A stretch of 63,994 nucleotides of DNA, the filler included, from Reclinomonas americana ATCC 50394 (Eukaryota): assembly GCA_048213135.1 (NCBI GenBank). It is 13 parts of 13 records of this genome, joined end to end, with 100 filler letters (N's around TTAATTAATTAA, not from the genome) between each part and the next. Parts side by side here need not be neighbours in the genome. Positions count along the whole stretch, not along the records: positions 1 to 8,870 come from AFZH01017063.1; 12 more parts are not named here. The stretch is one strand, 5' to 3'. Below, one piece after another: positions 1 through 17,454 of this stretch. The number at the start of each line of letters is the position of its first letter. The first letter of the stretch is position 1. Both the position numbers and the translations under genes were made by a program. The notes under the pieces are model-generated. The model did not search any database. It was not told the DNA's origin and saw nothing but the letters and a program-made list of their open reading frames with translations.

Positions 1-95
<95 letters not shown>

Positions 96-500
96 AAAAG
101 GGAAAGGAACAAGAGCGACAGTGAGAGGAAGTGAAGGAAAAGAGAGAAACAAGAGAGAGAGAGAAGATAAACCCGACAGTGAAAGAAAGAGAGAAGGAGG
201 TAAAGGAGGGAAGACAGGGAGACGTGGATGTATGAGAAACAGAGAGCAGGATAAGGGGTAATGAGGGAAGGATAGTGAGTGGGAGGAGAGCAACAGGTGG
301 AGGAAAAGAAAGAAGGGAAGAGACGGAAACGAGGAGAGAATGAGAGACGAAAGTAAATAGATGGTAAAGAGAGAAAGAAGGAAGAGTGGGAAAGTTGGCA
401 TGCATGGAAAGACTCAGAGAAAGACAAGACAGAAGACAAGACAAGGAAGTGAGAGAGTGACAAGGAGCAAGAGAAAACGACACAAGAGACCGACAAAAAC

Positions 501-548
<48 letters not shown>

Positions 549-740
549 AGAAAGGAAAGTAGGGAGGATGGAGAAAACGAGAGGAACGGGAATGAGCGAT
601 GGAGATTGGGGATAACGGAGTAAAGAAAATAAGAGAGACAGAGAGGGAGAAAGTAAGAGGAACGAGTTGAAGGGAATAGAGAGCGAAAACAAAGCAAGAA
701 AATGACAAAGAGAGCAAAACAGGGAGAGAAGGAGGGGGAA
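1..740. repeat. (GA)n microsatellite and purine-rich low-complexity tract
   Basis: Pure GA repeat at 1-90 and about 506-546. Similar (GA)/(CT)/(CA) tracts flank most contig ends. Confidence 0.9.
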
Positions 741-961
741 GGGAGAAGGAGCAACGTACCTTCACCGCCCTCCCTACTCTGCTCCAAAACTAAATCAAGA
801 AGCTGTGCAAACCGAGTTACGAAAAAACCAAACCCGCAGCTCATTCACTTTTGGAAACACACTGCCGCCACCGTCACACCCCATTCTCCAACCTCTTCTT
901 TTTCTCTTCGGTTTTGCCTAACTCACCCACCTCCGCCCCACACCCACCACCCGCATCTACG

Positions 962-2552
962 CTATTCGTCCGTCTCCATTCCCACGTGACCATTGGCACC
1001 GCTCCCTGATGCGCCACCCGCTTCACCGTCACCGTCACCCTGCAGCAACTCGCGTGGGAACATTCCAGTGGCGAGGGCGGTCTCGTATCGCGACATTTCC
1101 TCGGCGGTGTTGGCGTTTTGGATGGCCTCCTGCGAAGAAGGAAAAGGGGGTGGTGAGCAGAGGGAAAAGGGTGGCGGGCGAAGCGAGGGCAATAGGCACA
1201 CAGCCACCGCTCTCTTCCCCAACCACAAACCTCGATTCTCCGAATCTGTGCCCGTGTCAGCTTTGGTGCGTCCAGCGGCAGGAAACCGCCAGACGTGGGA
1301 ATGATTTCACCCGGCACAAATGTCCTCGATGGGCCCTCGTTGCCGCCGTCCGCCGCTGCACCAGCGCCGATCTTGGGCTTGCCAAAGAGGCGCTCTGCTG
1401 CCTCGCGTTCCTGCGAGAGATGAAGAGGGGAAAGAGCGTGAGCGTGAAGGGAGGCAGGGAAGAGAAGGAAAGTGATGGAGAAAAGTAGAAGAGCGAGCGG
1501 GTGTATGCGAGGAGGGAGGGAGGGAGGGAGGGGTAATGGGAGAGGAGGGAGTGAGAGAGAGAGAGAGAAAGAAAGCAAGAGAGGAGAGCAGAGTGCGAGG
1601 TGTGTGGCAGTAAGTGAGTGCGTATCCGTGCATCGTAACTGAGTGAACCCGTGAGAGGGATAGAGCTTGCAACTGAGAGAGAGTGCGCCTGCACCTCTCT
1701 AGCCTGCAACTGCATCTCACCTTTTGCTTCACTTTTGTGAAATCCAGCACGCGCAGCTTCGGCATCCGACTGATGGCGTACAGTCGGTAGTTGACTTGCC
1801 GGGTGACCATGTTGTTGCGCAGACTGACCATCTCCAACTTCGGGAATGTTGACAGTGCTGCAGACAAAGCGCACGTGAGACAAGCGAGCAAAGAGATGAG
1901 CAGTGACACGGGGGAGCCGCACCATCCAGCTCCGCCAACTCGCGAATGTGATTGTTGGTGAGAATGAGCATTCTGAGTTCGGGCAGCTGCTCGCCGCACG
2001 ATGGTGACAGTTTGCTGATGCGATTGTTGGCCAGCATGAGGACCTCCAGTCGTCGGAGGGTGGGGAAGTTGTCGAGCCGGATGACTTCGTTGTCGGAGAG
2101 GTCGATGCAGTTGAATTGGTCCTTGGTGGCGCCGAGGTTTTCAATGGCGGGGATTTTGTTGCCTGGGGGGAGGGGGATGAGGGGGGAAGGGGGGGAAGGG
2201 GGATGAGGGCAGGGGATGCAAGAGAGACAGAAAACAGAGAGTACATGACTCTCAGCAAAGGGAGCGAGAGAGTGTGCATTGAGCAAGCTGCATTGTCGCT
2301 CTGCCACAGCTCTCAAGTGCTTGAGTGCGTGAGAGAGATATACAAGAAGCATGCTTGAAGAGACAACAAGCAACATGCAAACAGACTCACATGACAAGAA
2401 TCACTCACTCTCTCTCTCTCACTCACTCTCTCTCCCTCTCTCTGCTCTGCTCTCTCTCTCTCTCTTTACTCACCTCGCAAGTCCAACTCGCGCAGCTTCA
2501 ACGGGTTGATAAAAGTCGGAGACCGATTCACAAGCTCTGCAGTAAGCCTCAT
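962..2552 (-). CDS. SNRPA1: U2 snRNP protein A' (leucine-rich repeat spliceosomal protein), 5 exons, complete
   Basis: Exons 2552-2474, 2162-1923, 1857-1721, 1410-1231 and 1129-962, all GT-AG and in frame. Product: MRLTAELVNRSPTFINPLKLRELDLRGNKIPAIENLGATKDQFNCIDLSDNEVIRLDNFPTLRRLEVLMLANNRI...YRLYAISRMPKLRVLDFTKVKQKEREAAERLF..., the characteristic U2A' N-terminus and LRR cap. Confidence 0.96.
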
Positions 2553-3117
2553 CTTGCACACTCACAAACACACACACAAACACACAAGACTGCTTGACAA
2601 CAAACACAAAGAGAGAGAGAGAGAGACATGTCAGTCATGGACATCACGCGCACACAAACAAACGAAAATATGCAACTTCTTTTGGGTATCTGCTGCTCGT
2701 GCTGCGCGTGAGTTGCTCGTGCACAGAGAGTTGGTGCACTGAGAGTGAACGAGAGGGCAAGAGAGAAAGTGCGCGGGAATGGGGACAATCACGCGAGGGA
2801 CGCGAGGACACAGCGGAAGCTTTGCGTTCGTTGAGGTGTTGGCACTGGCGTCGCGGAGGGGAGACAGAGAAACGTGCGGCAAAGAGAGTCAGACTGTGTG
2901 CGACGCTGGAACTCGATTCTCGTTTTTACGGCAGAAGAAAACGACAAACTTCACGCACCAAGTGTACAGCAGCGGCTTCAACGCAGCAGCTCAACAGCAT
3001 GACACACCTCGTCTGCCTCTGCAATCGCTGTTTGCAAAGTGCGCAGTGAGAGGTGAAAATATGACGAGTGGGGGGACGCGTCCTTGCACGGGACACGAAC
3101 ACTTTTCTGTGTTGAGA

Positions 3118-3413
3118 ATGGCCTTTGTGCCTGATCCCGATGCGCCGGTCATAGCACTGCCGGTGCTTCCGGTTGCTCCGCAGAGACCGTCTGCTGCTGG
3201 AGCAAGTGGAAAGGCGGTTTTGTCGCTGGATAATGTGTTGGAGGAGGATCGGCGGGAGGCGGACAAGTTTGTGTGTGCAGTGTGTCAGGTGAGTGAGTGT
3301 GAGGGAAGGGAGTGAGTGAGTGAGTGAGTGAGTGAGGGGGAAGGGGCTAGACTGTGGGTTTCATTGAACGCACGCGCGCACACACAGTCGTGCACAGAGT
3401 GACTGAGCGAGCG

Positions 3414-3451
<38 letters not shown>

Positions 3452-6400
3452 AGAGAAGAGCAGAGAGCAGAGAGCAGAGTGTGAGTGAGTGAGTGACTGA
3501 TTGCACTGTCTGTGTTGATGTTTTGGATACGGTTGAACTTGGTCATCAAGACAGCTGTTGCTTGTTTGTTTGTGAATGAATTGTTGTTGTTGTGACCAAG
3601 AGCGTGTCAATCGATGTTGAACTTGAGTTGACATGTTACCCCCAGGATCTGTGTGGCTTGGAGTTCTGTTTGTGTGCGGCTGGCGAGCACACTCTGTGTC
3701 GGTGAGGCAGCGTGTGAGCAGTGATCTTGTGACTTTTGTGATTACATTATTGTTCCGCAGTGAGCATGTTGATCAGCGAGAGCGTGGACTGTGCGGATGC
3801 TGCTCGACGACTGCGGCGTCGGCGCATGAGGCGCCTCCGTTTGTGCGGCGTGCGTTCCGTAACATTCGAGTTGCGTCGCCACAATGCTCGTGTCTTCCTT
3901 GTTGACCACTAATCGTTGCAAAACAGGTCCGCTGTCCGGCTTGCGGTGCTGGCCCGCAAGTTTCGTCCCTCCGTGTCGCTGTTAGATGGCAAGCACACTT
4001 GATTCACTGAGCAAGTGGCATAGGCCATTGGCGAGTTTCATGACTCGCACGACTGTCAGACGCAGTGTCCGCAATGCCACGCGCTGTTTCCGGTCAGCGC
4101 TCTTGTGGAACACGCGTGGAGTTCGTGCGCGGTGCCATGCTTGCGTGCCGATCAAGGATGCCGTGCGCGGCTGCCGCCCTGCGAGATGAGCGCGCATCTC
4201 GAGTTTGTGTGCTTGTTTGCATGTCCGCGACAGTGTGGTGCGGAGTGTGGCTGGTCGCAGCTCCGGCAGCATCTGGGTTAGTGGTGCTGTTGTTTAGTTG
4301 TGCGATGTGAGTGGTTGGGTGACACGTGCGGGTGTGTATTGTTTTCAGATACGCAATGCCGACTGCGGCCGGTGCGCTGTGGCGCCTTTGACCTGGGGTG
4401 TCCGTGGCGCGGCACGGCCGAGAGTCATGCCGATCATGCGCAAGTGTGTCCTCTCGTGACCACGGCTCCCATGTTTCGCCAGGTGTGGCATTCGCGCAAG
4501 CACACCGCACACACTCAGGAGGGTGTAGGAGATGGTGCGAGCTCACGCTGTTGTTGGTCACAGTTGGCGGCGCGACTGGTGCAACTCACCGAGCAAGTCG
4601 CCGTCGAGCGTGCAGTTCGAGAGGAGGTCAGTGTGTTGTTCGCTGGACTACTCTGTTGTGCGAGGTTAACAGTATGCGCGTGTCGTTGTCAGCAAGTGGC
4701 GCAACTCACGGAGCAAGTCGCCGTCGAGCGTGCAACACGTGCGGAGGTCAGTGTGTTTCGCTTGACAGCTCTGTTGTGCACACGAGAATCCAAGTGTATG
4801 TGTGTGCATTACATGTATACAGATATCAGGGCACGTGGTGCACCTGTCACAGCGATTGGTGGAGGAGCGCAACATGCGAGAGCAGGTTAGCGGTGTCGTA
4901 GCGACGCCAGCGATGTCATACCAGCTGTTCACGTATTCGATGTGCAGCTGGTGCACTTTTTGGAGCACCGACTGGGTGAGGAACGTGATGCTCGTGAAGC
5001 GGTAAGTGTGCGTGCGCGGCATCATATGTGTGAGTCAAATGGCGTTGCTGAATCGTTGCGTTTTGTTCCAGCTGGAGCGGCGGTGGACTGCAGATCGCGA
5101 AGCATTCGCTGCAGTTTCGTTGTTTACAGGCTGCATTGTCGCTCTCGATGGTCACTGATGCCTCTCTTGCAGCAACTGCAAGCACTGCACGAGCAATATC
5201 AGCGACAAGAAGCTCGCCTGAGTGATACCCACGAAGCGGTAAGTGTGGATGTGCAGCAACAAGTGCGCCACACGGGCTTGCTGAGCTTTTTTATCTTTAT
5301 GATCTAGCTTGAGCGGCGCGTTGCATCAGTTGCGTTATTGGCTGGCTTACTTCGACAATGATACCAAGGTAACTCATGCGCTTGAGTGTATTGCATCAAT
5401 CGCAGCCGCGAGGCGAACATGTTCAGGTGCAACAACAGTTGCGCTCTATTTCCCGACGTCTTGGTTCTTCTCGATGCTGCTGATTCGTATTACAGGAAGC
5501 TTAATGTCAAAATTCGCGATGCCACGGCCACGGACACTGGTTGGTTCAAGAATTCTCGTTATTCGACACAGCTGCGACTGATCTCTGCGTACTGTGTGTT
5601 GTACAGTTTCAACATCGATTCAAGCCACTGTGCTGGAGCTCAAGACTGGTAGCGAGCGTTATCAACTTGTGATTTTACTCCAATGATCTTATTTGTGTTT
5701 TCCGGAACACGCACACGCGCAGCAATCAAGCAACTTGTTCCACGATATGCTGACGTCGCACACGACGAGATGCGACTGGTGTTTCGTGGCCGTGAGTTGG
5801 CACCTGATGCTGCTGCACTCTTGTCGCTGAATGTCGACAACGATGCAATCATTATGATTGCAAAGCGTGCACGGTAAGCAATGTGCGCCGATTGAAGATC
5901 TGAAGACGTGAAAGGAATGTCTCGTCGTTCTTACTGTTCGTCCCCCCTTGCAGTGCACAGAAGAGAATCGTGGTCAGAGTTCGCGGCGCGCGTTCCGTTG
6001 CGGGTGACGGTTTGTTCATATTATCACAGGCATTAGCATGCTATGATCGAGAATGATGACTTGTAAACCCTGTGCAGTGACCATTGCGCATGATGCAACC
6101 GTGCTGCAGCTTAAGGACGGTAGTTCGCGCATAGTGTCGTACTCTTAGTCAACGGCATTGTGCGCTGTTGCCCTTAACTCGAGATCTAAACTCGCGCAGA
6201 ATGTGCTAGGCAGTTTCCGCCATGCGATCAGCTTTCGCATGACAGCATGCGACTGGTTTTTCGTGGCCGAGAATTGGCACCGGATACTGCCACACTGTCG
6301 TCACTGGGAGTTGAGGACGATGCAAACATTTTGTTTGTTGAGCGGTGAGCTTCTTCTGCTGCCCTGCTACGCGCTAGGTGTTTCATTGCGCATACTCCTT

Positions 6401-7661
6401 TCCGTTCTGCAGTCTGCAAAGGAATACAATTACCGTCAGAATCCGTGAGGGGCCAAATACTAACTCTGGTACATTATTGAGGCCGGACTGCTTTATCATT
6501 TATTGAGATTCTTGAGTTAGATAGATCTTCATTAACTTGTGTCGACGCAGTGACTATTCCGAAAGACGCAACCTTACTGGAGCTGAAGTATGGTATTCCT
6601 GGACTTGGTCAAGTCTCAACATCATTCCGCTGCTTTCAGCTGACTCGTGAGCTGGAACTCGTGCAGAAATCAACCGGCAAATTCCACGACATGCTCAGTT
6701 GCCAACTGACGATATGCGATTGGTGTTTCGTGGCCGCGAACTGGCACCAGATACTGCTACGCTCCGCTCGCTTGGAGTGGAGGAGGATGCAAACATTATG
6801 TTTGTTAAGCGGTGAGCTTCTTCTGCCGCCTTCGTATCACGTGCTTTGTGCAAACTTCTTTCCTTTCGGCAGTGCCCAAAGCAAAAATATTACCGTCAAC
6901 GTCCGCGACATGGCAGCTGTTCACTCTGGTGTGTTGACAGGGCACAGGTTTGTATGTGTTTGCTGCTTCAGTTGGGTTCATTATCGTGTGTCGCCTCGGC
7001 GCAGTGAGTATTCCCAAAGACGGAACTGTAATGGATCTCAAGCATGGTATTTTGCACTCGGATATGAATGGCTATCCGCGCCGACAACTCACGAGCTGCA
7101 ACTCGTTCAGAAATCGCTCGACAAATTCCACGACTTGCTCAGTTGCCACCCGGAGAGATGCGATTGGTGGTTCGTGGCCGCGAACTGGCACCTGATACTG
7201 CTGCACTCTCCTCGCTGGGAGTTGAGGAGGGGGCAAACATTATGTATGTTCAACGGTGAGCACCCTCAATAGACTTTTTCCTGCTCTATGTAGATCTGTA
7301 TCTGAGTACCATTTCCGGCAGCGTCCGCGGCTCCGACCGCCGCTTCAAGACCGATCTACGTCGCCTCGACAAGAGCGTCGCCGCTCGTCTCCGCCACGTT
7401 CACGCCTACACCTACCGCTGGAGGCCCGACACACCCATCCCCGGCACCGCGCCGGGTGTCACCGACTTTGGCGTCATGGCGCAAGACCTGGAAGCCGCGT
7501 TTCCGGAAATCGAGAGGCTGGTTGTCAGTTGCACCGACCGCGACTTCAAGATGGTGGCGTACGACTCGCTGGGACCGCTGCTGATCGACGCCATCAACGA
7601 GCACTCGGAGATGCTGGAGGCGCTGGTGGCGCGGTGCGACGAGTTGGAGAGTGTGGAGTGA
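3118..7661 (+). CDS. Multi-exon RING / TRAF-type Zn-finger / coiled-coil / 4x ubiquitin-like / Peptidase S74 (ICA) protein
   Basis: About 25 short GT-AG exons splice in frame. RING-like: KFVCAVCQDLCGLEFCLCAAGEHTLCREH...LCGCC. Zn fingers: VRCPAC..HDC, CPQC..EHAWSSC, RCGAFDLGCPWRGTAESHADHAQVC. Heptad-rich mini-exons follow, then four UBL repeats with ATxLELK and MRLVFRGRELAPD. The last exon (7322-7661) has SDRRFK, YTYRW, FGVMAQDL and VAYDSLGPLLIDAINE. The start could also be the in-frame ATG at 3061. Confidence 0.85.
5496..7255 (+). repeat. Four tandem three-exon cassettes, each encoding a ubiquitin-like (beta-grasp) domain
   Basis: Copies at about 5496-5873, 5954-6344, 6412-6811 and 6873-7255 share atgcga(c/t)tggt..ttcgtggccg.ga..tggcacc.gat.ctgc and have identical intron positions and phases. 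Confidence 0.88.
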
Positions 7662-7946
7662 GCAGTCGGCACAGTTTGGTGGTGGAGGTCTTGGAAATGC
7701 ATGCTGTGTAAAGTTGTTGTTTTACGCACCTCTCTTCACGTGTGCTATAAGCGGAGAGATCAGTGTGTGGTGACACCGCTGAAACCTACAGACGGATTTG
7801 GTTCAGCATATATTTGAGGGGAGGGCGCACACCGTATCGGTATATTCAGAGATGTAAGGCTGCTCGCTGGGTGATGAGCTGAAGGTGTGTCGGATGTTGT
7901 TGGAGTTGGTATTGATGTTGTCGGCGATCGATGTGTTGTGGCACGA

Positions 7947-8812
7947 CTAGAAGCCAGTGAAGCGTTTGAACACGGTTTCGCCCTTGACGCATACGGTGCC
8001 GCTGATGCAGGACTTGTAGGCATCCAAGAGTCCATCGCACTGAGGCGCCCAGTGCTGCCCGTCGCATCCGGACATGAAGGGGGAACACTCTTGAATCCGA
8101 ATGGTGACGTTGACCACACACTGGTTGTACAACTGTTCAAGCTGTTGGCGCTGATGGTTCTCCATATAATATGCGAGCGCGAGAGCGGCGAGGAAGCCAG
8201 TCACGCCAGCATGACCAAATGAAGCCGCTGTCTTGAGTGCACCAACCGACACCTGCATATGCATACAGCAGCAGTAAACATCCCAGTGGAGTGGACATGT
8301 ATAAGCAAGTCACTCACTGCGGCACTGCCGTAGGTAGAAAGGGAATCACTCCCACCGTCCTGTGACAATCACATGTTCAGCAAACATCTGCAGATCTAGA
8401 TCTGTGAATACAGGAATCGAACAAAATGACATTTGCATGTCGACACGAAGCGCACATCCAAGAAACATGCGCAATGAGAAAAGTTCTCGCACCCGCCTTT
8501 CAGTCATGCGATTCTCTTCTTGGTGCCACAAGAACTCATGAACAAGCGCGGATGCACATCCTGCGCATGCACTGTGCGCGCGCATCGCGCGCAGCGGTGC
8601 ACGTTTTCGTACCTTCAACAGCAGTTCGGACCCTTTGACCTGCGCGTTGACATCGCCAGCAGAGATTGCCATCAGCAACAACGAAGCAATGCATATAGTT
8701 GACAGATCCAACTGAGCACAAAGCGAACATGTGCGTGCGTGTGCACAGCGAGATCAGAACTAGTAATACAACACAGCAGCTTGACAAGGCGACAAAAACT
8801 CACATATCGCAT
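7947..8812 (-). CDS. Hypothetical small protein with signal-peptide-like N-terminus and Cys-rich C-terminus
   Basis: Tentative splice gives MRY|LDLSTICIASLLLMAISAGDVNAQVKGSELLLK|...|VSVGALKTAASFGHAGVTGFLAALALAYYMENHQRQQLEQLYNQCVVN...CSPFMSGCDGQHWAPQCDGLLDAYKSCISGTVCVKGETVFKRFTGF*. Internal exon boundaries are uncertain. Confidence 0.4.
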
Positions 8813-8870
8813 GTTTTGATGATGTTTCGCAGTTCCAGACAACTTGCGCTCAGCGAAATGAGAGAAAGAA

Positions 8871-8970
8871 NNNNNNNNNNNNNNNNNNNNNNNNNNNNNN
8901 NNNNNNNNNNNNNNTTAATTAATTAANNNNNNNNNNNNNNNNNNNNNNNNNNNNNNNNNNNNNNNNNNNN
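8871..8970. other. Assembly gap with six-frame stop linker (first of 12)
   Basis: 44 N + TTAATTAATTAA + 44 N. The same structure starts at 11465, 14929, 17456, 35320, 38937, 41421, 47270, 56672, 57963, 60417 and 62865. Confidence 0.99.
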
Positions 8971-9092
<122 letters not shown>

Positions 9093-11389: not shown

Positions 11390-11564
11390 GTGAGTTTTTC
11401 CGCCTCCCCCGCTCTGGCTCACAATCCCCCCACTCACCTCCGCTTTCCCTCAATAACAGCCACANNNNNNNNNNNNNNNNNNNNNNNNNNNNNNNNNNNN
11501 NNNNNNNNTTAATTAATTAANNNNNNNNNNNNNNNNNNNNNNNNNNNNNNNNNNNNNNNNNNNN

Positions 11565-14500
11565 CTACGCCGGTCGTTCTGAGCTGCCCGATAACTTGAA
11601 GGTGAGTGGCGGAGAAGGGAAAGGAGGAGAAGAGGAGATCAAGGGGAAGACGATTTTTCACGAGCTTCTGTCTCTCCGTGTCTCGTGTCCTTTCTCTTCA
11701 TTTCGCGTCTTCTCTTTGTTGCCCTCTCCTTATCTCTGCTTTTCTGTTCTCTCTCAGCTTGTATTCTTCTTCTTTCTCTATGCCCTCGTTGTGTCATTTC
11801 CTTTGTTCTCTCCCTCCCCTCTCTCTCTCTATCCCTTTCCCCCTCCCTCCCTTCTCCTTCACCTCCTTCTCACCCTTCCCCCTTCACCTACACAGGCCCT
11901 CTTCCGCCCGGTGGCTATGATGGTCCCCGACTACGCGCTGATTGCCGAAATCTCGCTCTTCTCGTACGGCTTCCTGCTGGGCCGCGACTTGGCGCGCAAG
12001 ATTGTGGCCACCTACAAGCTGTGCTCCGAGCAGCTGTCGTCGCAAGATCACTACGATTACGGCATGCGTGCCGTCAAATCGGTGCTGACGGCTGCCGGCA
12101 ACCTGAAGATGAAGTACCCGAACGAGCGCGAGGACGTGCTCATGCTCCGCGCCATCACCGACGTCAACCTGCCGAAATTCCTCACGCAGGATATCGAGCT
12201 GTTCCAGGGCATCATTTCCGATCTGTTCCCTGGCGTTGATCTGCCGGCACCCGACCGCGAGGAGCTGGTGGAGGCCATGTGCGTGGCGTGCCGCGAGTTC
12301 AACTTGCAGCCGACGCAGCCGTTCTTGGACAAGACGCTGCAGGTGTACGAGATGATTCTCGTGCGCCACGGTCTCATGCTTGTCGGCTTCCCCAACTCGG
12401 GCAAGACGTGCTCGTACAAGGTGCTGGCGCACGCCATCAATCAGCTGGCGGAGCGTGGCAAGGAGAATCAGGTCTCGTTTGTCGTCGTCAACCCCAAGGC
12501 CATCACCATGGGTCAGTTGTACGGCGAGTCGGACCTGGTGTCGCAGGAGTGGACCGACGGTATCATGTCCAAGAAGTTCCGTCGCTTCGCCGACGACCAC
12601 TCGCAGAACCGCAAGTGGATTGTGTTTGACGGGCCCGTCGATGCCTTGTGGATTGAGAGCATGAACACTGTGCTGGTGAGTCTCCTCCAGCCTGCATTGT
12701 TTTTCACGCTTGGTGCTGACTTGATTCTTCTCCTTCTTCTTTTCACAGGACGACAACCGCAAGCTGTGCCTGGTGTCTGGTGAAATTATCACCATGTCGC
12801 CCAACATGAACTTGGTGTTCGAGGTGGCCGATTTGGCCGTGGCTTCGCCGGCCACCGTGTCGCGTTGTGGTATGATTTACATGGAGCCGGGCGCGCTGGG
12901 CTGGGAGCCGCTGCGTGACTCGTGGCTGGCCACGCTGCCCGACTACTTGGATCAGTCGCACCGCGATTTGCTGCGGACCATGTTCAATTGGCTGCTGCCG
13001 AGCGCACTCGACTTTGTGCGCAAGAACACGCGTGAGCCGTTGCCGACGGGTCCGATCCAGATGGTGCGCAGTCTGATTGATCTGCTCTCGTCCATGATGG
13101 ACGAGTTCCTCTTGGAGGAGAAGAGGGTGCGTATGCTTGTCACCGTGGTGGGATCCACAAGCGCGAGTACTGATGGTTTCTTTCTTTTATTGCGTGCGCA
13201 GTACAAGGACCTGGGTCAGCGTGTGGGCACAGAGTGGCTCGAGGCGCTTTTCGTCTTCTCAATGATCTGGACTGTGGGTGGCACCACCGACATTGAGGGA
13301 CGTGTCAAGTTCAACCAGTTCACGCGTCGTTTCCTCGACGGCAAGGAGCTTGGTGCGTGCTTTCCCCCTCTCCAACCGGCCACTCTGCCCTCCTTTATTT
13401 GTTGCTCATGATGTGCCACACAGACGGATCGACGCACGCCGTGCAACCGCCCATGCGCCTCAACATGCCGATTCCGGACAAGGAGACTGTGTACGACTAC
13501 TGCTTTGTCAAGGAGGACAACTGCTGGATGCGCTGGGTCGACCTGATTGTCGACAAGCCGTTCTCGCGCGACACTCGTTTCCACGACATTATCGTGCCGA
13601 CGGCCGACACCAAGCGCTACTCATTCATGCTCGAGACGCTGGTGACACATCGCAAGCCGGTGCTCTTTGTCGGTCCGACCGGCACAGGCAAGACGGTGTA
13701 CGTCAAGGAGACACTGGAGAAGGTGCTGGATCAGACCAAGTACATGCCAGTGATGATCACCTTCTCGGCCAAGACGTCGGCCAATCAGACGCAGGATCTG
13801 ATCGACGCCAAGGTCATGCGTCGCCGCAAGGGCTACTTTGGTCCGCCAATCGGCTTCAACATGGCCATTTTTGTCGACGATGTCAACTTGCCGGCGCTGG
13901 AGAGAGTTTCGTGAAGGGGGTGGGAGGAGGAGGAGGAGAAGGAGGAGGGCAAAGAGAAGGAGGGGAAAGAGAAGGAGGGGAAGGAGAAGGCGAGAAGGAT
14001 GAAGATAAGAAAGAGAGGCGGAGGAGGAAGGAAAGAAGAGCTAGAAGCAGCAGCACAAGTGTTTTGACACTTCAGTTACTCAAGATAAAGAAGAAAGAGA
14101 AGCAGAGGCAGAAGCAAGAAGAGAAATATGAGGAGGAAGAGAAGGAGAGAAAAGTGTTGTGATACAGCATTCACTCGAGACTACGAAGAAAGAGAAGCAG
14201 GAGCAGATCCAAGATGAGGAGGAGGAAGAGAGGGACGAGACGAAGAAAGGAGAGGAGAGGAGGACAGAAGGAAAAGCAGACTCAAAAACTGGAGTTGTTG
14301 TAGGAAGGGGAGAGCAAAGTTGTTCTGACCTAGACTTGCTCGAGACAAAAATAGAAGTAGCAGCAGAAACAGGAGAAGAAGAGAAGGAAGGCAAAGAAAA
14401 ACGAAGAAGAGTACTATGAGACACTCGCTCAGGTTAAAGAAGAATGAGAAGCAGAGCGAGAAAAGGCGCTTTGACGATGTACTCACTCAATTTTAATCTC

Positions 14501-15028: not shown

Positions 15029-17454
15029 CCGCCGGAAATGGTGAAGAAGGTGCTGGCTGCTGTGTGCATTCTGAAGGGTGTGCAACCCGTGAAGGCACTG
15101 GACGACAAGGGCAAGCGTGTGGAGGACTACTGGCCGAACGCCGTGAAGATGATGGGAGAAATGACCTTCCTCAAGTCGCTCTTCGACTTTGACAAGGACA
15201 ACATCCCCGCGGCCATCATCCAGAAGCTGCAGCCGTACCTGGAGGATCCCAAGTTTGTGCCCGAGGAAATGATCAAGGTGTCGTTCGCCGCCACCGGTCT
15301 GTGCTCGTGGGTGCGCGCCATGGACACGTACAACCGTGTAGCCAAGGTCGTGCGACCGAAGCAGGAGGCTGCTGCGGAAGGTGCGGTGGGAGGGGAAAGG
15401 GAAGAGAAGAGGGAGAGGGAAGGGAATATAGAGGGAGAGGGAGAGAGAGGTGAGAACGGAGGGGGAAAGAAGAGAACGAGCGGAAAGGCCAAATGTGCTG
15501 TTAGGGCATTGGAGTAAGGGAGCATTGCTCAAGTGATTCAGTGACTGCGTGAGTAAGAGAGACAGAGAAAGAATATGGAGAGTGAGAGGAAGTGGGAAGG
15601 ATCGAGAATGAGCGACGAGTGAAGAAGAGAGTGTGTAAGTGTGTGAGCGAGTGAGAGGGAGATACGCGTTCGATGTGTTGGTTCGGTGAGTGCGTGGGTG
15701 AGTTGTGATCGAGAGGAGAATGAGTGAGCAAGAGAGCATGAGCTCATGGTTGTTGTCCGTAAACTTCCCCTACGTGATCACTCACATCACTTGCTTCCCT
15801 CTCCCGCAGCCACTGCCGAGTTCGAATCTGCCATGGCGATTGTGAATGAGAAGAAGGCCATGGTGCAGGCGGTGCGTGCGCGCATTGCCGAGCTGGAGGC
15901 CGCCTTCCAGGCCTCCAAGGTCAAGGAGGAGAATTTGACGCGCGAGAAGGAGAATGTGCTGAACAAGCTGATCCGCGCCAACAAGCTGATTGACGGCCTC
16001 GGCTCCGAGCGTGATCGCTGGACAGAGGCCGCCAACGAGCGTGCGGCAGCGTACGTGGCGCTGACGGGCGACGTGCTCATCTCTGCCGGTCTGATCTCGT
16101 ACCTCGGTGCCTTCACGGCCGACTATCGCCGCGACGCTATTGTGGAGTGGGTGGCCAAGTGCAAGTTCTACAAGATTCCGTGCACCGACAACTTTGCGCT
16201 GGCACGCGTGCTGGGCGACCCCGTCAAGATTCGCGACTGGAACATTGCGAAGCTGCCGGCCGACGATTTCTCGATCGAGAACGGCATTGTGGTCGAGTAC
16301 GGCCAGCGATGGCCGCTCATGATTGACCCGCAAGGTCAGGCCAATCAGTGGGTGCGCAACATGGAGGAGAAGAACGGCCTGAAGGTGATCAAGCTCTCCG
16401 ACAACGACTTTGTGGCCAAGCTGGAGCAGGCCATTCAGTACGGCGACCCAGTCCTGCTCGAGAATGTCGGCGAGGAACTGGACCCCGTGCTGGAGCCGTT
16501 GCTGGTCAAGCAGATTTTCCGCGAGGCCGGCGGCTGGGCCATCCGCATGGGTGACAAGGTGCTGACGTACTCGGAGGAATTCCGCTTCTACATCACCACC
16601 AAGCTGCGCAATCCGCACTACCTGCCGGAGCTGTCGACCAAGGTGACGCTGCTCAACTTTATGATTACGCAAGCCGGTCTGCAAGATCAGATGCTTGGCC
16701 GTGTCGTCATTGAGGAGATGCCGGAGAAGGAGGAGGAGAAGAATGAGCTGGTGCTGCAGAGTGCGGAGAACAATCGCTTGCTCAAGCGCATTGAGGATCG
16801 CATTCTGGAGCTCCTGTCCACCGAGGGCGACTTGCTGGAGAATCAGGAGGTCGTGGATGCGCTCGACGAGTCCAAGCGCAAGTCGAACGAAATCGAGGAG
16901 AAGCAGGAGCAGGCGGCGAGGGTGAGTGGCGCGAAGGGGGGAGGGGAGAGGGAGAGAATAGGGAAAGATGACTGGTTTTCTGTTGCATGTCTGTGTTGTA
17001 TGCTGGCTATTAGTTTGATTATTCGGCGGTGTGTACTCTTTTGCGTGCGTTCATTCTCATTAGTTGAGATCTATTCGCCTGCTAGAGTGTGTCTTTTGTG
17101 CCCGTGTTTCATTCAGTCAGCCTACGTTCTACTCTGATGCGGGCCTACTTCCATCTTCAGTCTGAAGATCGGTAGTTTCTGGTGTGTTTTGCGTGTTGCT
17201 CGTGTGCGTTTCCAACTCGGTGACCAGAGAGTGTCTTTTGCGCTCGTGTTCCATTCAAGACCGTACTTTCTTTGCATGCTCTAGTCAGTGGCCCGAATGC
17301 GTCTGTTTCGTTCTATTTTGGCACCTCTCGTGTATCTCGTGTGTGTGCTGTTTGTTCGTGTTACTTCTTTCAGCGACAACTAATCATTATTCCTTCCGCT
17401 CTCTTTTCGCAGACGGAGGCAGATATCGATCGCGCTCGTCAGCAGTACGTGCCT
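15029..17454 (+). CDS. DNAH: Axonemal dynein heavy chain, stalk/MTBD and AAA5 (partial)
   Basis: VSFAATGLCSWVRAM, KLIDGLGSERDRW, RWPLMIDPQGQANQWVRNME, FRFYITTKLRNPHYLPE. Collinear with the two preceding contigs. Confidence 0.95.

Follow-up and report, generated by a model that had tools for sequence, protein, structure and literature searches.

In Reclinomonas americana ATCC 50394 (GCA_048213135.1) we describe what appears, from its sequence, to be a protist-type gene in which four tandem ubiquitin-like (UBL) domains are fused directly to a phage-type, self-cutting ICA (Peptidase_S74) domain. The locus lies within AFZH01017063.1, which supplies positions 1 to 8,870 of the window, by which we mean the whole 63,994-nucleotide stretch of DNA that was analysed. 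The explanation that we favour, and that as a whole, including trimer-gated cleavage, we hold at slightly better than even confidence, is that of a multi-exon eukaryotic gene whose 3′ end would comprise four tandem UBLs, a 66-nt intron and a complete ICA terminal exon (Table 1).

Gene layout and the last splice junction

All 12 introns in the curated UBL-ICA chain are of the form GT..CAG and are 61-82 nt long, and the UBL-region exons resemble each other more than most introns do. Between UBL repeats, dN/dS was 0.18, 0.24 and 0.49, with the value of 0.18 belonging to the comparison of UBL2 and UBL3, and an open wrong-frame control on the same repeats gave 0.64-1.71. By these ratios, the UBL exons are under purifying selection. 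In single-exon scans with PF00240, the last exons of the UBLs gave E-values from 7e-4 to 1.5e-6, with one of the four above the gathering score and every last-exon Pfam match lying near or below its cut-off.

Further upstream, the zinc-finger-like exons at 4024-4482 probably belong to the same gene as the UBL array. The coiled-coil-like exons that follow them are linked to the exon beginning at 5496 by 140 ORF-preserving GT-AG paths, and the ATG at 5419-5421 is a possible alternative, separate start. A preliminary description of this DNA had placed a RING upstream of the UBLs; a RING was not confirmed there, and what likeness there is points weakly to a SIAH-type zinc finger (E 0.04). On exon 1 (3118-3288) and on 3927-4007, Pfam returned nothing beyond weak zinc-ribbon matches.

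Table 1. Features of the UBL-ICA locus, in window coordinates
Feature	Position	Strand	Observations
Cys/His-rich exons, SIAH/TRAF-like zinc-finger pattern	4024..4482	+	SIAH1 E 0.04; zf_UBZ E 0.029, below cut-off
Short repeated heptad-rich exons, coiled-coil-like	4554..5426	+	read from reading frames
UBL1	5496..5873 (exons 5496-5539, 5607-5648, 5723-5873)	+	GT..CAG chain; Pfam ubiquitin on last exon E 2e-5
UBL2	5954..6344 (exons 5954-6009, 6078-6119, 6200-6344)	+	last exon PF00240 E 1e-4
UBL3	6413..6811 (exons 6413-6468, 6551-6592, 6667-6811)	+	PF00240 E 1.5e-6, 28.3 bits vs cut-off 25.4
UBL4	6873..7255 (exons 6873-6928, 7005-7046, 7111-7255)	+	PF00240 E 7e-4; phmmer to polyubiquitin E 2.4e-6
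Last intron	7256..7321	+	66 nt, GTGAGC...CAG; in-frame TGA 7257-7259; best of 4 candidate acceptors
Terminal exon, ICA / Peptidase_S74	7322..7661	+	109 residues from Ser; stop TGA 7659-7661
VRG tail	7322..7331	+	Arg codon third base and V-R-G codons; predicted new C-terminus after cleavage
Predicted catalytic / P1′ Ser	7332..7334	+	PF13884 profile position 1; invariant column S4 in 21-sequence alignment
Predicted general-base Lys (S-x4-K dyad)	7347..7349	+	invariant column K9 in 21-sequence alignment
Long C-terminal helix, predicted trimer core	7560..7655	+	exon-product residues 80-111; DSSP on model

The direct fusion of UBL4 to the ICA domain depends on the last splice junction. After ...NIMYVQ, the last exon of UBL4 stops two bases into an Arg codon: the DNA reads ...caacg up to 7255, the intron runs from gtgagc to ccggcag (7256-7321), and the following exon opens cgtccgcggctccgac at 7322. 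Splicing 7255 to 7322 is in frame and would give ...YVQ-R-VRG-SDRRFK, with the Ser at 7332-7334 and the Lys at 7347-7349. The preliminary description had stated that removal of 7256-7321 keeps the S74 frame and yields ...QRVRG-SDRRFK, which we reproduced from the window sequence. Its further statement that this acceptor alone keeps the frame stands for the two acceptors compared at that time, 7293 breaking the frame, but fails once all four AG dinucleotides in the 7260-7345 interval are considered, as two of them (7306 and 7321) preserve it. Acceptors 7272 and 7293 both break the S74 frame. Use of 7306 would give a GAG end and a 51-nt intron and would add TISGS between QR and VRG. In an acceptor weight matrix trained on the 11 sibling introns, with percentiles taken against all AG in the window, 7321 scored +3.3 bits (93rd percentile) and 7306 scored −5.5 bits (50th percentile); this score, together with a GAG end and a 51-nt length where the siblings have CAG and 61-82 nt, disfavours 7306. 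The Gly-Ser junction is unaffected by the choice between 7321 and 7306 because VRG and the Ser are coded downstream of both. From the sequence, we infer that the 7256-7321 splice site is used.

Codon usage changes sharply across this junction. GC3 is 0.48 in the UBL exons (154 of 321 codons) and 0.84 in the ICA exon (96 of 114; Fisher p 3e-12), and the UBL and ICA parts therefore have different histories; given the break, the fusion could be a recent one or one that is not expressed. The same break, the in-frame stop directly after the donor and the lack of a similar protein in the protein collections searched would all suit a junction that is not used, with the UBL gene stopping at the TGA at 7257-7259 (...YVQR) and the ICA exon being a relic, a piece of some other transcript, or an illusion of assembly or annotation. 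We think this unlikely. There is no in-frame ATG before the Ser (7260-7331), so the ICA frame must be entered from an exon upstream; two sibling exons share the donor GTGAGC, and CAG is the acceptor; and the 66-nt length and the phase fit the other 11 introns. The ICA domain is moreover fully intact, with all invariant residues, and its codon usage is host-like, the GC3 of the neighbouring dynein gene being 0.72-0.90.

The terminal exon and its predicted self-cleavage

The terminal exon looks like an intact and functional ICA domain, for which catalysis is predicted from sequence and model. PF13884 matches it with an E-value of 7.3e-13 (49 bits, the cut-off being 22) over profile positions 1-55 of 58, and the match begins exactly at the Ser (profile position 1). 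The ICA site reads SDRRFK, the aromatic pair near the Ser-Lys dyad is retained, and all nine of the columns that are invariant in a 21-sequence ICA alignment are kept (S4, D5, K9, W33, G50, A53, Q54, P61 and V68). In the Atlas, 30 of 30 feature matches fell in the Peptidase_S74 (PF13884) set, with PF13884 on 65-100% of members in the three clusters shown. An AF2 model of the ICA exon had a pLDDT of 92.1; its best Foldseek match was the MyRF ICA 7dc3 (E 6e-5, prob 1.00, TMq 0.75, identity 21-22%), and the next were the phage chaperones 3gud and 3gw6 (prob 0.85-0.99).

A three-copy model of the ICA scored 0.90, against 0.02 for the best of three controls. Of proteins solved as pairs of one chain, 21 of 30 came up to this mark, and of those solved as single chains, none of 23; for eukaryotic proteins, the corresponding counts were 17 of 29 and 0 of 30. 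The trimer runs agreed in at least 98% of contacts, with a partner pLDDT of at least 87. Like complexes have already been solved, and passing the mark may reflect memory on the part of the predictor. In the modelled interface, residues 1-15 of one copy lie on the β-strands of the next, residues 1-3 already contacting the neighbouring copy, and the C-terminal helices of the copies touch and contribute to the interface. The interface agrees in this with MyRF, for which a "cable through donut" and a triple coiled coil are reported (PMC8326128). The ICA is thus modelled as a homotrimer formed via its C-terminal helices, with the cleavage strand placed on the neighbouring subunit. Between them, the PF13884 start position, the 7dc3 fold and the trimer model bear out the earlier identification of this exon as an S74/ICA domain with its catalytic Ser at 7332-7334.

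Published work on other ICA domains indicates where this one would be expected to cut. Cleavage immediately N-terminal to the catalytic Ser, which the preliminary description had taken as known, is documented for MyRF, where mass spectrometry places the cut between P586 and S587 (PMC8326128), and for endoNF, where it falls just N-terminal to S911 (PMC3828593). The MyRF dyad, S587/K592, has the same S-x4-K spacing as the one here, S-to-A and K-to-A mutations abolish MyRF cleavage, and trimerisation of the ICA is required (PMC8326128). In both E. coli and yeast, ICA processing proceeds autonomously (PMC3742443). The scissile bond is reported to be attacked by the hydroxyl of the neighbouring Ser (PMC3828593, citing Schulz 2010), and an ester intermediate is therefore implied.

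We propose that, in the R. americana protein, the ICA domains of three chains would trimerise through their C-terminal helices, with the N-terminal V-R-G-S strand of each chain laid on the β-strands of its neighbour. With the Lys five residues further on as activator, the hydroxyl of the Ser would then attack the Gly-Ser peptide bond, yielding a free ICA fragment of 109 residues together with an N-terminal part whose last domain, UBL4, ends ...QRVRG. Since an ICA cuts just before the Ser, cleavage would leave this C-terminus without a deubiquitinase. The ICA would act mainly as a self-removing trimerisation or assembly module for what is probably a zinc-finger/coiled-coil protein, and UBL4 would natively carry the Arg-x-Arg-Gly as its tail, uncovered as a by-product of cleavage. 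Self-cleavage between Gly and Ser is what we infer from sequence and model together, and a course of events running from trimerisation through this cut to a UBL-ended product, with the ICA mainly a self-removing assembly module, seems to us on balance the probable one.

The immediate surroundings of the ICA are unusual. A fibrous trimeric stalk before it is absent; three residues separate the end of the globular UBL from the Ser, and the coiled-coil-like exons lie about 330 residues upstream. The other ICA domains examined all follow a fibrous or repetitive stalk, for example collagen or Shufflon_N, and a stalk Arg participates in catalysis in endoNF (PMC8326128), so that, against our main reading, cleavage beside a UBL is a prediction. 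With the UBL too near the site, the ICA might never cut and might serve as a permanent C-terminal trimerisation module. Such a module would accord with a flexible link of only three to four residues from the UBL core to the Ser, with the contacts that residues 1-3 already make to the neighbouring copy in the trimer model, and with phage endoNF, in which cleavage is set off when the stalk folds correctly (PMC8326128). However, the Ser-Lys dyad and the nearby aromatic pair, which would be unnecessary for pure oligomerisation, are kept, and MyRF cleavage needs no stalk residue (PMC8326128). We regard a non-cutting ICA as quite unlikely.

The RVRG tail and its possible fates

With phmmer against solved ubiquitin, residues 10-42 of the UBL4 exon aligned with ubiquitin 34-65, with one inserted residue, and gapless extension of this alignment places R, V, R and G on ubiquitin 72-75 and the Ser on ubiquitin 76. 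The Pfam register is consistent, exon V47 corresponding to position 68 of 72 in the ubiquitin profile. The likeness of RVRG to the ubiquitin tail, with the Ser at position 76, had been proposed in the preliminary description and is recovered by both the phmmer extension and the Pfam coordinates. Its observation that the three internal UBLs are without a Gly tail likewise agrees with our reading of their ends, ...KRARAQ, ...ERLQRN and ...KRAQSK, from all three of which Gly is absent. The predicted post-cleavage end, ...QRVRG, has one Gly, in the register of ubiquitin 75, and not Gly-Gly. Because the P4 Arg is common to all four UBL repeats, only the P2 Arg and the P1 Gly count as extra matches to ubiquitin; the chance of this pair is about 0.9%, a post hoc estimate made from the Arg content of the protein (0.104) and the frequency of Gly at P1 (22 of 265 sites in ICA relatives).

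Across 262 ICA relatives, RG stands directly before the Ser at none of 265 cleavage sites, and RG is therefore not an ICA requirement. Gly at P1 appears to be tolerated, as P1 varies: it is Thr in endoNF (PMC3828593), Pro in MyRF (PMC8326128) and Gly at those same 22 of 265 sites.

The exposed RVRG tail may have a role of its own. One would be maturation free of a deubiquitinase, in which the exposed ...RVRG lets UBL4 be activated by an E1-like enzyme or recognised by ubiquitin receptors that bind the tail, in the manner of a processed modifier. A single C-terminal Gly is found in some conjugated UBLs, which speaks for this role, as do the register of the tail (ubiquitin 72-75), the restriction of Gly to the last of the four UBLs and the low chance, on the post hoc estimate of about 0.9%, of Arg-Gly at P2-P1. 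However, the tail has one Gly and not two, and the UBLs are divergent, with last-exon Pfam matches near or below cut-off. We find this role unlikely.

A more speculative role would be conjugation independent of E1 and E2, the acyl-ester between Gly and Ser being resolved by an amine so that UBL4 and all that lies upstream of it become attached to a target via the Gly. By analogy with ciliate systems, the ICA would then be a trimer-gated, ATP-independent "dispenser" of the UBL end, passing its ester to a target amine, a function to which we assign a very small chance. Ser attack on the scissile bond implies the ester intermediate that is needed (PMC3828593), and in Tetrahymena BUBL1, BIL2 needs no ATP to join ubl4 to ubl5 or to a Ras GTPase (PMC8616854). 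In the R. americana protein, the R-x-R-G tail adjoins the nucleophile directly, and its RG, absent from P2-P1 at all 265 sites in ICA relatives, is not needed by the ICA. Nonetheless, the moiety transferred would be a large trimeric protein, its tail has a single Gly, and conservation of that tail is seen in no homologue. As a matter of general chemistry, amines attack the Cys thioester of Hint domains more readily than an oxy-ester, which would form here. In addition, the ICA reports cited above describe no acyl transfer to anything but water. Conjugation by this route therefore seems to us very unlikely, and we retain exposure of the tail as a by-product of ICA removal as the preferred reading.

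The UBL-ICA arrangement was not found elsewhere among the relatives searched. A homologous-protein search with the ICA exon gave 713 candidates, none at E<=1e-3, and one with a single UBL exon gave 22 candidates, again none at that threshold; an exhaustive search of representative proteins gave 2203 matches, the best at 38% identity (E 4e-11), with no orthologue. Metagenome contigs contained 23 ICA loci (29-39% identity) and viral contigs 11 (30-40% identity), and tblastn with the four repeats found no UBL at any of them; a search of viral contigs with a UBL exon also found nothing. In the profile search, there was no PF00240 partner among the 120 matches listed of 2981. When 28 of the 30 best profile matches were scanned with Pfam (two very long ones were left out), PF13884 was found on 27 and ubiquitin on none; the remaining match, an ankyrin protein, is a chance match. 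A local UBL HMM had no matches in 150 proteins, and no relative with domains listed or scanned had a globular neighbour three residues upstream of its ICA. The conservation of RxRG-SD in homologues that the preliminary description had looked for was not seen, as the searches gave no orthologue and RG preceded the Ser at 0 of 265 sites in the nearest relatives.

Comparison with known systems and significance

The ICA domains of MYRF and of Dictyostelium MrfA share with the present one the same fold (7dc3), the S-x4-K dyad and a eukaryotic host, and on the strength of sequence and model the same trimer-dependent self-cleavage just before the Ser would be expected here. MYRF has an Ndt80-type DNA-binding domain and a β-helical stalk before its ICA and a transmembrane segment after it, whereas the present protein has a UBL three residues before the ICA, has no Ndt80 domain and stops right after the ICA helix (7659-7661). 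The chaperone domains of phage tailspikes and tail fibres (endoNF CIMCD, PF13884) are likewise C-terminal, are about 110 residues long and have all invariant residues, and the nearest relatives in sequence are of the phage tail type (38% identity, E 4e-11; 6f45 long tail fibre, E 3e-5). These domains serve fibrous trimers such as triple β-helices and collagen, whereas here the neighbours are globular UBLs in a spliced eukaryotic gene.

In the ciliate BUBL proteins, as here, a UBL C-terminus adjoins the nucleophile of an auto-processing domain, and their processing needs neither a deubiquitinase nor ATP (PMC8616854). The analogy, already drawn in the preliminary description, is stronger than was stated there, in that BIL2 conjugates a UBL independently of ATP (PMC8616854). 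It is an analogy of arrangement only: BUBL proteins use a Hint fold with a Cys nucleophile and a thioester and do not depend on a trimer, whereas here the domain is S74 and the nucleophile is Ser, and conjugation is demonstrated for BUBL and hypothetical here. Precursors of polyubiquitin and of ubiquitin fusions also resemble the R. americana protein, with head-to-tail UBLs at ubiquitin-like spacing and a removable extension on the last unit. In contrast to these precursors, the internal units here are without Gly-Gly and thus not cleavable, the extension is a self-cleaving domain and not a deubiquitinase substrate, and the UBLs are far from ubiquitin, with Pfam scores near the cut-off.

In summary, the roles known for ICA domains are that of a self-removing trimerisation chaperone in phage fibres and, in eukaryotes, that of the release switch of MYRF. 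If our reading is true, the R. americana gene would represent a new use of the ICA, in which a UBL C-terminus is made by trimer-coupled self-cleavage without a deubiquitinase. If hydrolysis is the only outcome, the protein would show that a globular domain three residues upstream is compatible with ICA cleavage. Should the ester be open to interception, the arrangement would be a second natural conjugation of a UBL free of an enzyme cascade, evolved independently beside the Hint-based BUBL and built on the fold of a phage tail-fibre chaperone, and a candidate tool for protein ligation.

Gene structure and the UBL4-ICA junction

The predicted gene at 5496–7661 comprises 13 exons with an open frame of 434 residues. 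Its four tandem ubiquitin-like units (UBL1 to UBL4), of ~81 residues each, are encoded by three exons apiece (44/56, 42 and 145/151 nt) with conserved phases, and a terminal exon encoding an intramolecular-chaperone auto-processing (ICA; Peptidase_S74) domain follows. Two comparisons show that the UBL units genuinely code for protein. Units 2–4 share 71–84% identity in their long exons, compared with 24–55% for most introns, and between-unit dN/dS, at synonymous differences of up to 0.60, is low (0.18, 0.24 and 0.49) relative to a wrong-frame control (0.64–1.71).

Upstream of the array lie a series of short heptad-rich exons and the Cys/His-rich exons (see table), in which a zf_UBZ match below cut-off (E 0.029) marks a C-x2-C...H-x4-C finger 5′ of the SIAH1-like part. 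The exon at 5308 (5308–5333) begins L-E-R-R, as an earlier coiled-coil exon does. As many as 140 ORF-preserving GT-AG paths lead from the upstream exons to the exon at 5496. At 5419–5426, ATG-TTC-AG followed by GTGCAA allows an in-phase splice to the first UBL exon via a 69-nt intron; this may be a micro-exon within the gene, or a separate UBLx4-ICA gene may begin here. The RING named in the preliminary description is therefore at most putative.

Coordinates of features in the joined sequence
Feature	Position	Strand	Basis
Cys/His-rich exons	4024–4482		weak SIAH1 zinc-finger likeness, E 0.04
Ser codon (predicted nucleophile)	7332–7334	+	spliced reading frame
Lys codon	7347–7349	+	spliced reading frame
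Dynein heavy chain gene	9148 to beyond 17137	+	Pfam domains
AAA_6	11521–12783	+	E 4e-67
AAA_9 + MT stalk	15728–17137	+	AAA_9 E 2e-87

On the plus strand, the last UBL4 exon ends ...caacg at 7255, the intron gtgagc...ccggcag occupies 7256–7321, and cgtccgcggctccgaccgccgcttcaag begins at 7322. Joining 7255 to 7322, a splice predicted from sequence, completes an Arg codon and continues V-R-G-S-D-R-R-F-K. This agrees with the preliminary description, which held that removal of 7256–7321 keeps the S74 frame and sets VRG before the Ser. It had also held that, of the two acceptors it compared, only this one keeps the frame. Among all AGs between 7260 and 7345 (n = 4), 7272 and 7293 do break the frame, as had been said of 7293, but 7306, outside that pair, preserves the frame as 7321 does. 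Acceptor 7306 (AG at 7305–7306) would add five residues, TISGS, between UBL4 and VRG, giving a longer linker and a 51-nt intron with a GAG end, and it scores poorly. Against the use of 7306, all 12 curated UBL-ICA introns have CAG ends and span 61–82 nt. With a weight matrix from 11 sibling acceptors, 7321 scores +3.3 bits (93rd percentile of all AGs in the window) and 7306 scores −5.5 bits (50th percentile). Because VRG/S is encoded 3′ of both sites, the Gly-Ser junction is independent of acceptor choice.

The last intron (66 nt) is in frame and has TGA as its second codon; thus, its retention would give a protein ending ...YVQR without the ICA domain. A CG/GTGAGC donor with a built-in stop also occurs after UBL2 (6345) and UBL3 (6812). 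Another GTGAGC, the usual donor motif of this gene, spans the ICA stop codon (7658–7663), so an additional 3′ exon is possible, although aligned relatives stop at the same point in the helix.

Ubiquitin ends in Arg-Leu-Arg-Gly-Gly at positions 72–76. In a phmmer search of solved structures, residues 10–42 of the last UBL4 exon aligned with ubiquitin 34–65 with one inserted residue, and gap-free extrapolation would place Q-R-V-R-G at 71–75 and Ser at 76. Pfam coordinates concur (exon residue 47 is profile position 68 of 72), bearing out the earlier proposal that RVRG lies in the ubiquitin tail register with Ser at 76. Arg at the position of ubiquitin 72 is common to all four UBLs, and in each of them position 73 is small or aliphatic, but only the last has Arg-Gly at 74–75; the internal units end ...KRARAQ, ...ERLQRN and ...KRAQSK. 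The linker is coded by the downstream exon in every unit, so V-R-G occupies the place of A-Q-K, L-Q-R and A-Q-S. Use of such a tail, once exposed, by E1-like enzymes or tail readers seems to us unlikely.

The ICA domain and its relatives

The terminal exon encodes an intact ICA domain. It matches Pfam Peptidase_S74 at 49 bits (cut-off 22; E 7.3e-13) with Ser at profile position 1, and when aligned with 20 short relatives from the database it keeps nine of nine invariant columns (S4, D5, K9, W33, G50, A53, Q54, P61 and V68). An AlphaFold model of the exon has a pLDDT of 92.1 and a terminal helix of 32 residues. The closest Foldseek match to this model is the MyRF ICA domain (7dc3; E 6e-5, prob 1.00, TMq 0.75), followed by the phage intramolecular chaperones 3gud and 3gw6; the sole solved relative found by sequence is the phage long-tail-fibre chaperone 6f45 (E 3e-5). 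That the junction goes unused or the ICA exon is a relic is, in our judgment, improbable.

A three-copy model formed a trimer with a score of 0.90, against 0.02 for the best of three controls. Because structures of such complexes already exist, this result indicates likeness and may reflect those known structures. The same mark was reached by 21/30 proteins solved as one-chain pairs and 0/23 single chains, and on eukaryotes by 17/29 and 0/30, respectively. Runs agreed in at least 98% of contacts, with partner pLDDT of at least 87. In the model, residues 1–15, including V-R-G-S, lie on the β-strands of the neighboring copy, and the C-terminal helices are packed against one another. This matches the published account of MyRF, with its "cable through a donut" and its triple coiled coil (PMC8326128). 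The domain might also trimerize without cutting, the UBL being too close, but we give this little probability.

We surveyed the residues preceding Ser (P2 and P1) in 262 relatives, 150 from an exhaustive search and 112 from a profile search; the pattern S-[DN]-x-[RKQ]-x-K was present in 248, at 265 sites in total. P1 counts included Thr (70), Ser (49), Pro (32), Gly (22), Tyr (21) and Ala (18), and Arg-Gly preceded Ser at 0 of the 265 sites. Published P1 residues are Thr in endoNF (PMC3828593) and Pro in MyRF (PMC8326128), and thus Gly at P1 appears tolerated but not typical. By this comparison, Arg-Gly is no requirement of the ICA domain and is part of what the UBL brings to the junction; a post hoc estimate of its chance occurrence by composition is ~0.9%. 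In six relatives (P0079, P0001, P0002, P0009, P0029 and P0066) a single chain has between two and four ICA cleavage sites; P0079 has four S-D-x-R-L-K sites in 5473 residues. Such chains resemble polyproteins built from fibre modules that cleave themselves.

Partners and history of the ICA exon

The check that the preliminary description called for, conservation of RxRG/SD in homologues, had no orthologue to draw on in the collections searched. Word-indexed protein searches with the ICA and UBL exons found none, nor did an exhaustive protein search, in which top identity was 38%. Metagenome and viral loci reached at most 40% identity, none with a UBL upstream, and the UBL exon had no match in viral contigs. 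PF00240 was absent from the 120 profile-search matches listed, of 2981, a ubiquitin domain from the 28 top matches scanned with Pfam, and a local UBL profile matched 0 of 150 proteins. Partner modules were instead collagen, Shufflon_N, YadA-head-like and similar fibrous types. Full-text searches of openly accessible main texts yielded no description of a UBL-S74 fusion.

The ICA exon has a GC3 of 0.84 (96/114 codons) versus 0.48 in the twelve UBL exons (154/321; Fisher p 3e-12); it is 0.48–0.67 in upstream exons and 0.72–0.90 in the neighboring dynein gene, whose presence marks the host as a flagellated eukaryote. Flanking introns have 38–54% G+C and flanking non-coding DNA about 45–50%. This break weighs against a simple reading of the locus and indicates that the history of the ICA exon differs from that of the other exons; codon usage favors exon shuffling or a fusion of recent date and suggests donation by a different, codon-adapted gene. 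Elsewhere, two N runs at 8871–8970 flank a TTAATTAATTAA linker (8915–8926), with a long (TC)n microsatellite immediately after them (8971–9089), and further (GA)n and (TC)n tracts occur at 1–90 and ~3420.

A probable self-removing assembly module

ICA domains are reported to cut directly N-terminal of the Ser, an activity abolished by Ser-to-Ala and Lys-to-Ala mutations, and MyRF requires ICA trimerization but not the stalk residues (PMC8326128). In the published mechanism, the Lys takes a proton from the Ser hydroxyl, which then attacks the scissile bond next to it (PMC3828593, citing Schulz 2010). In both E. coli and yeast, processing is described as autonomous and constitutive (PMC3742443). 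These published properties argue for a model to which we assign somewhat better than an even chance: three chains would come together via their ICA helices, each Gly-Ser bond would be cut, and the 109-residue ICA fragment would depart, leaving a mature trimer in which UBL4 is last and has a free ...QRVRG end.

The interpretation in the preliminary description is supported in part: cleavage exposing a ubiquitin-like end is plausible and mechanistically grounded, whereas its suggestion of conjugation via the ester is speculative. If the ester were transferred to an amine, conjugation would proceed without E1, and for this the arrangement in ciliate BUBL1 is a genuine precedent: its Hint-like BIL2 domain is reported to attach a UBL, independently of ATP, both to a second UBL and to a Ras GTPase (PMC8616854). 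BUBL chemistry proceeds through a Cys thioester in an unrelated fold. The UBL-ICA protein is analogous to the BUBL arrangement and not a member of it, and we consider such conjugation very unlikely here. Under the favored model of assembly and release, the ICA domain would serve to assemble the trimer and then remove itself; the exposed tail would be a by-product, perhaps used, perhaps not. An ICA auto-processing domain would be placed in a new context, beside ubiquitin-like units.
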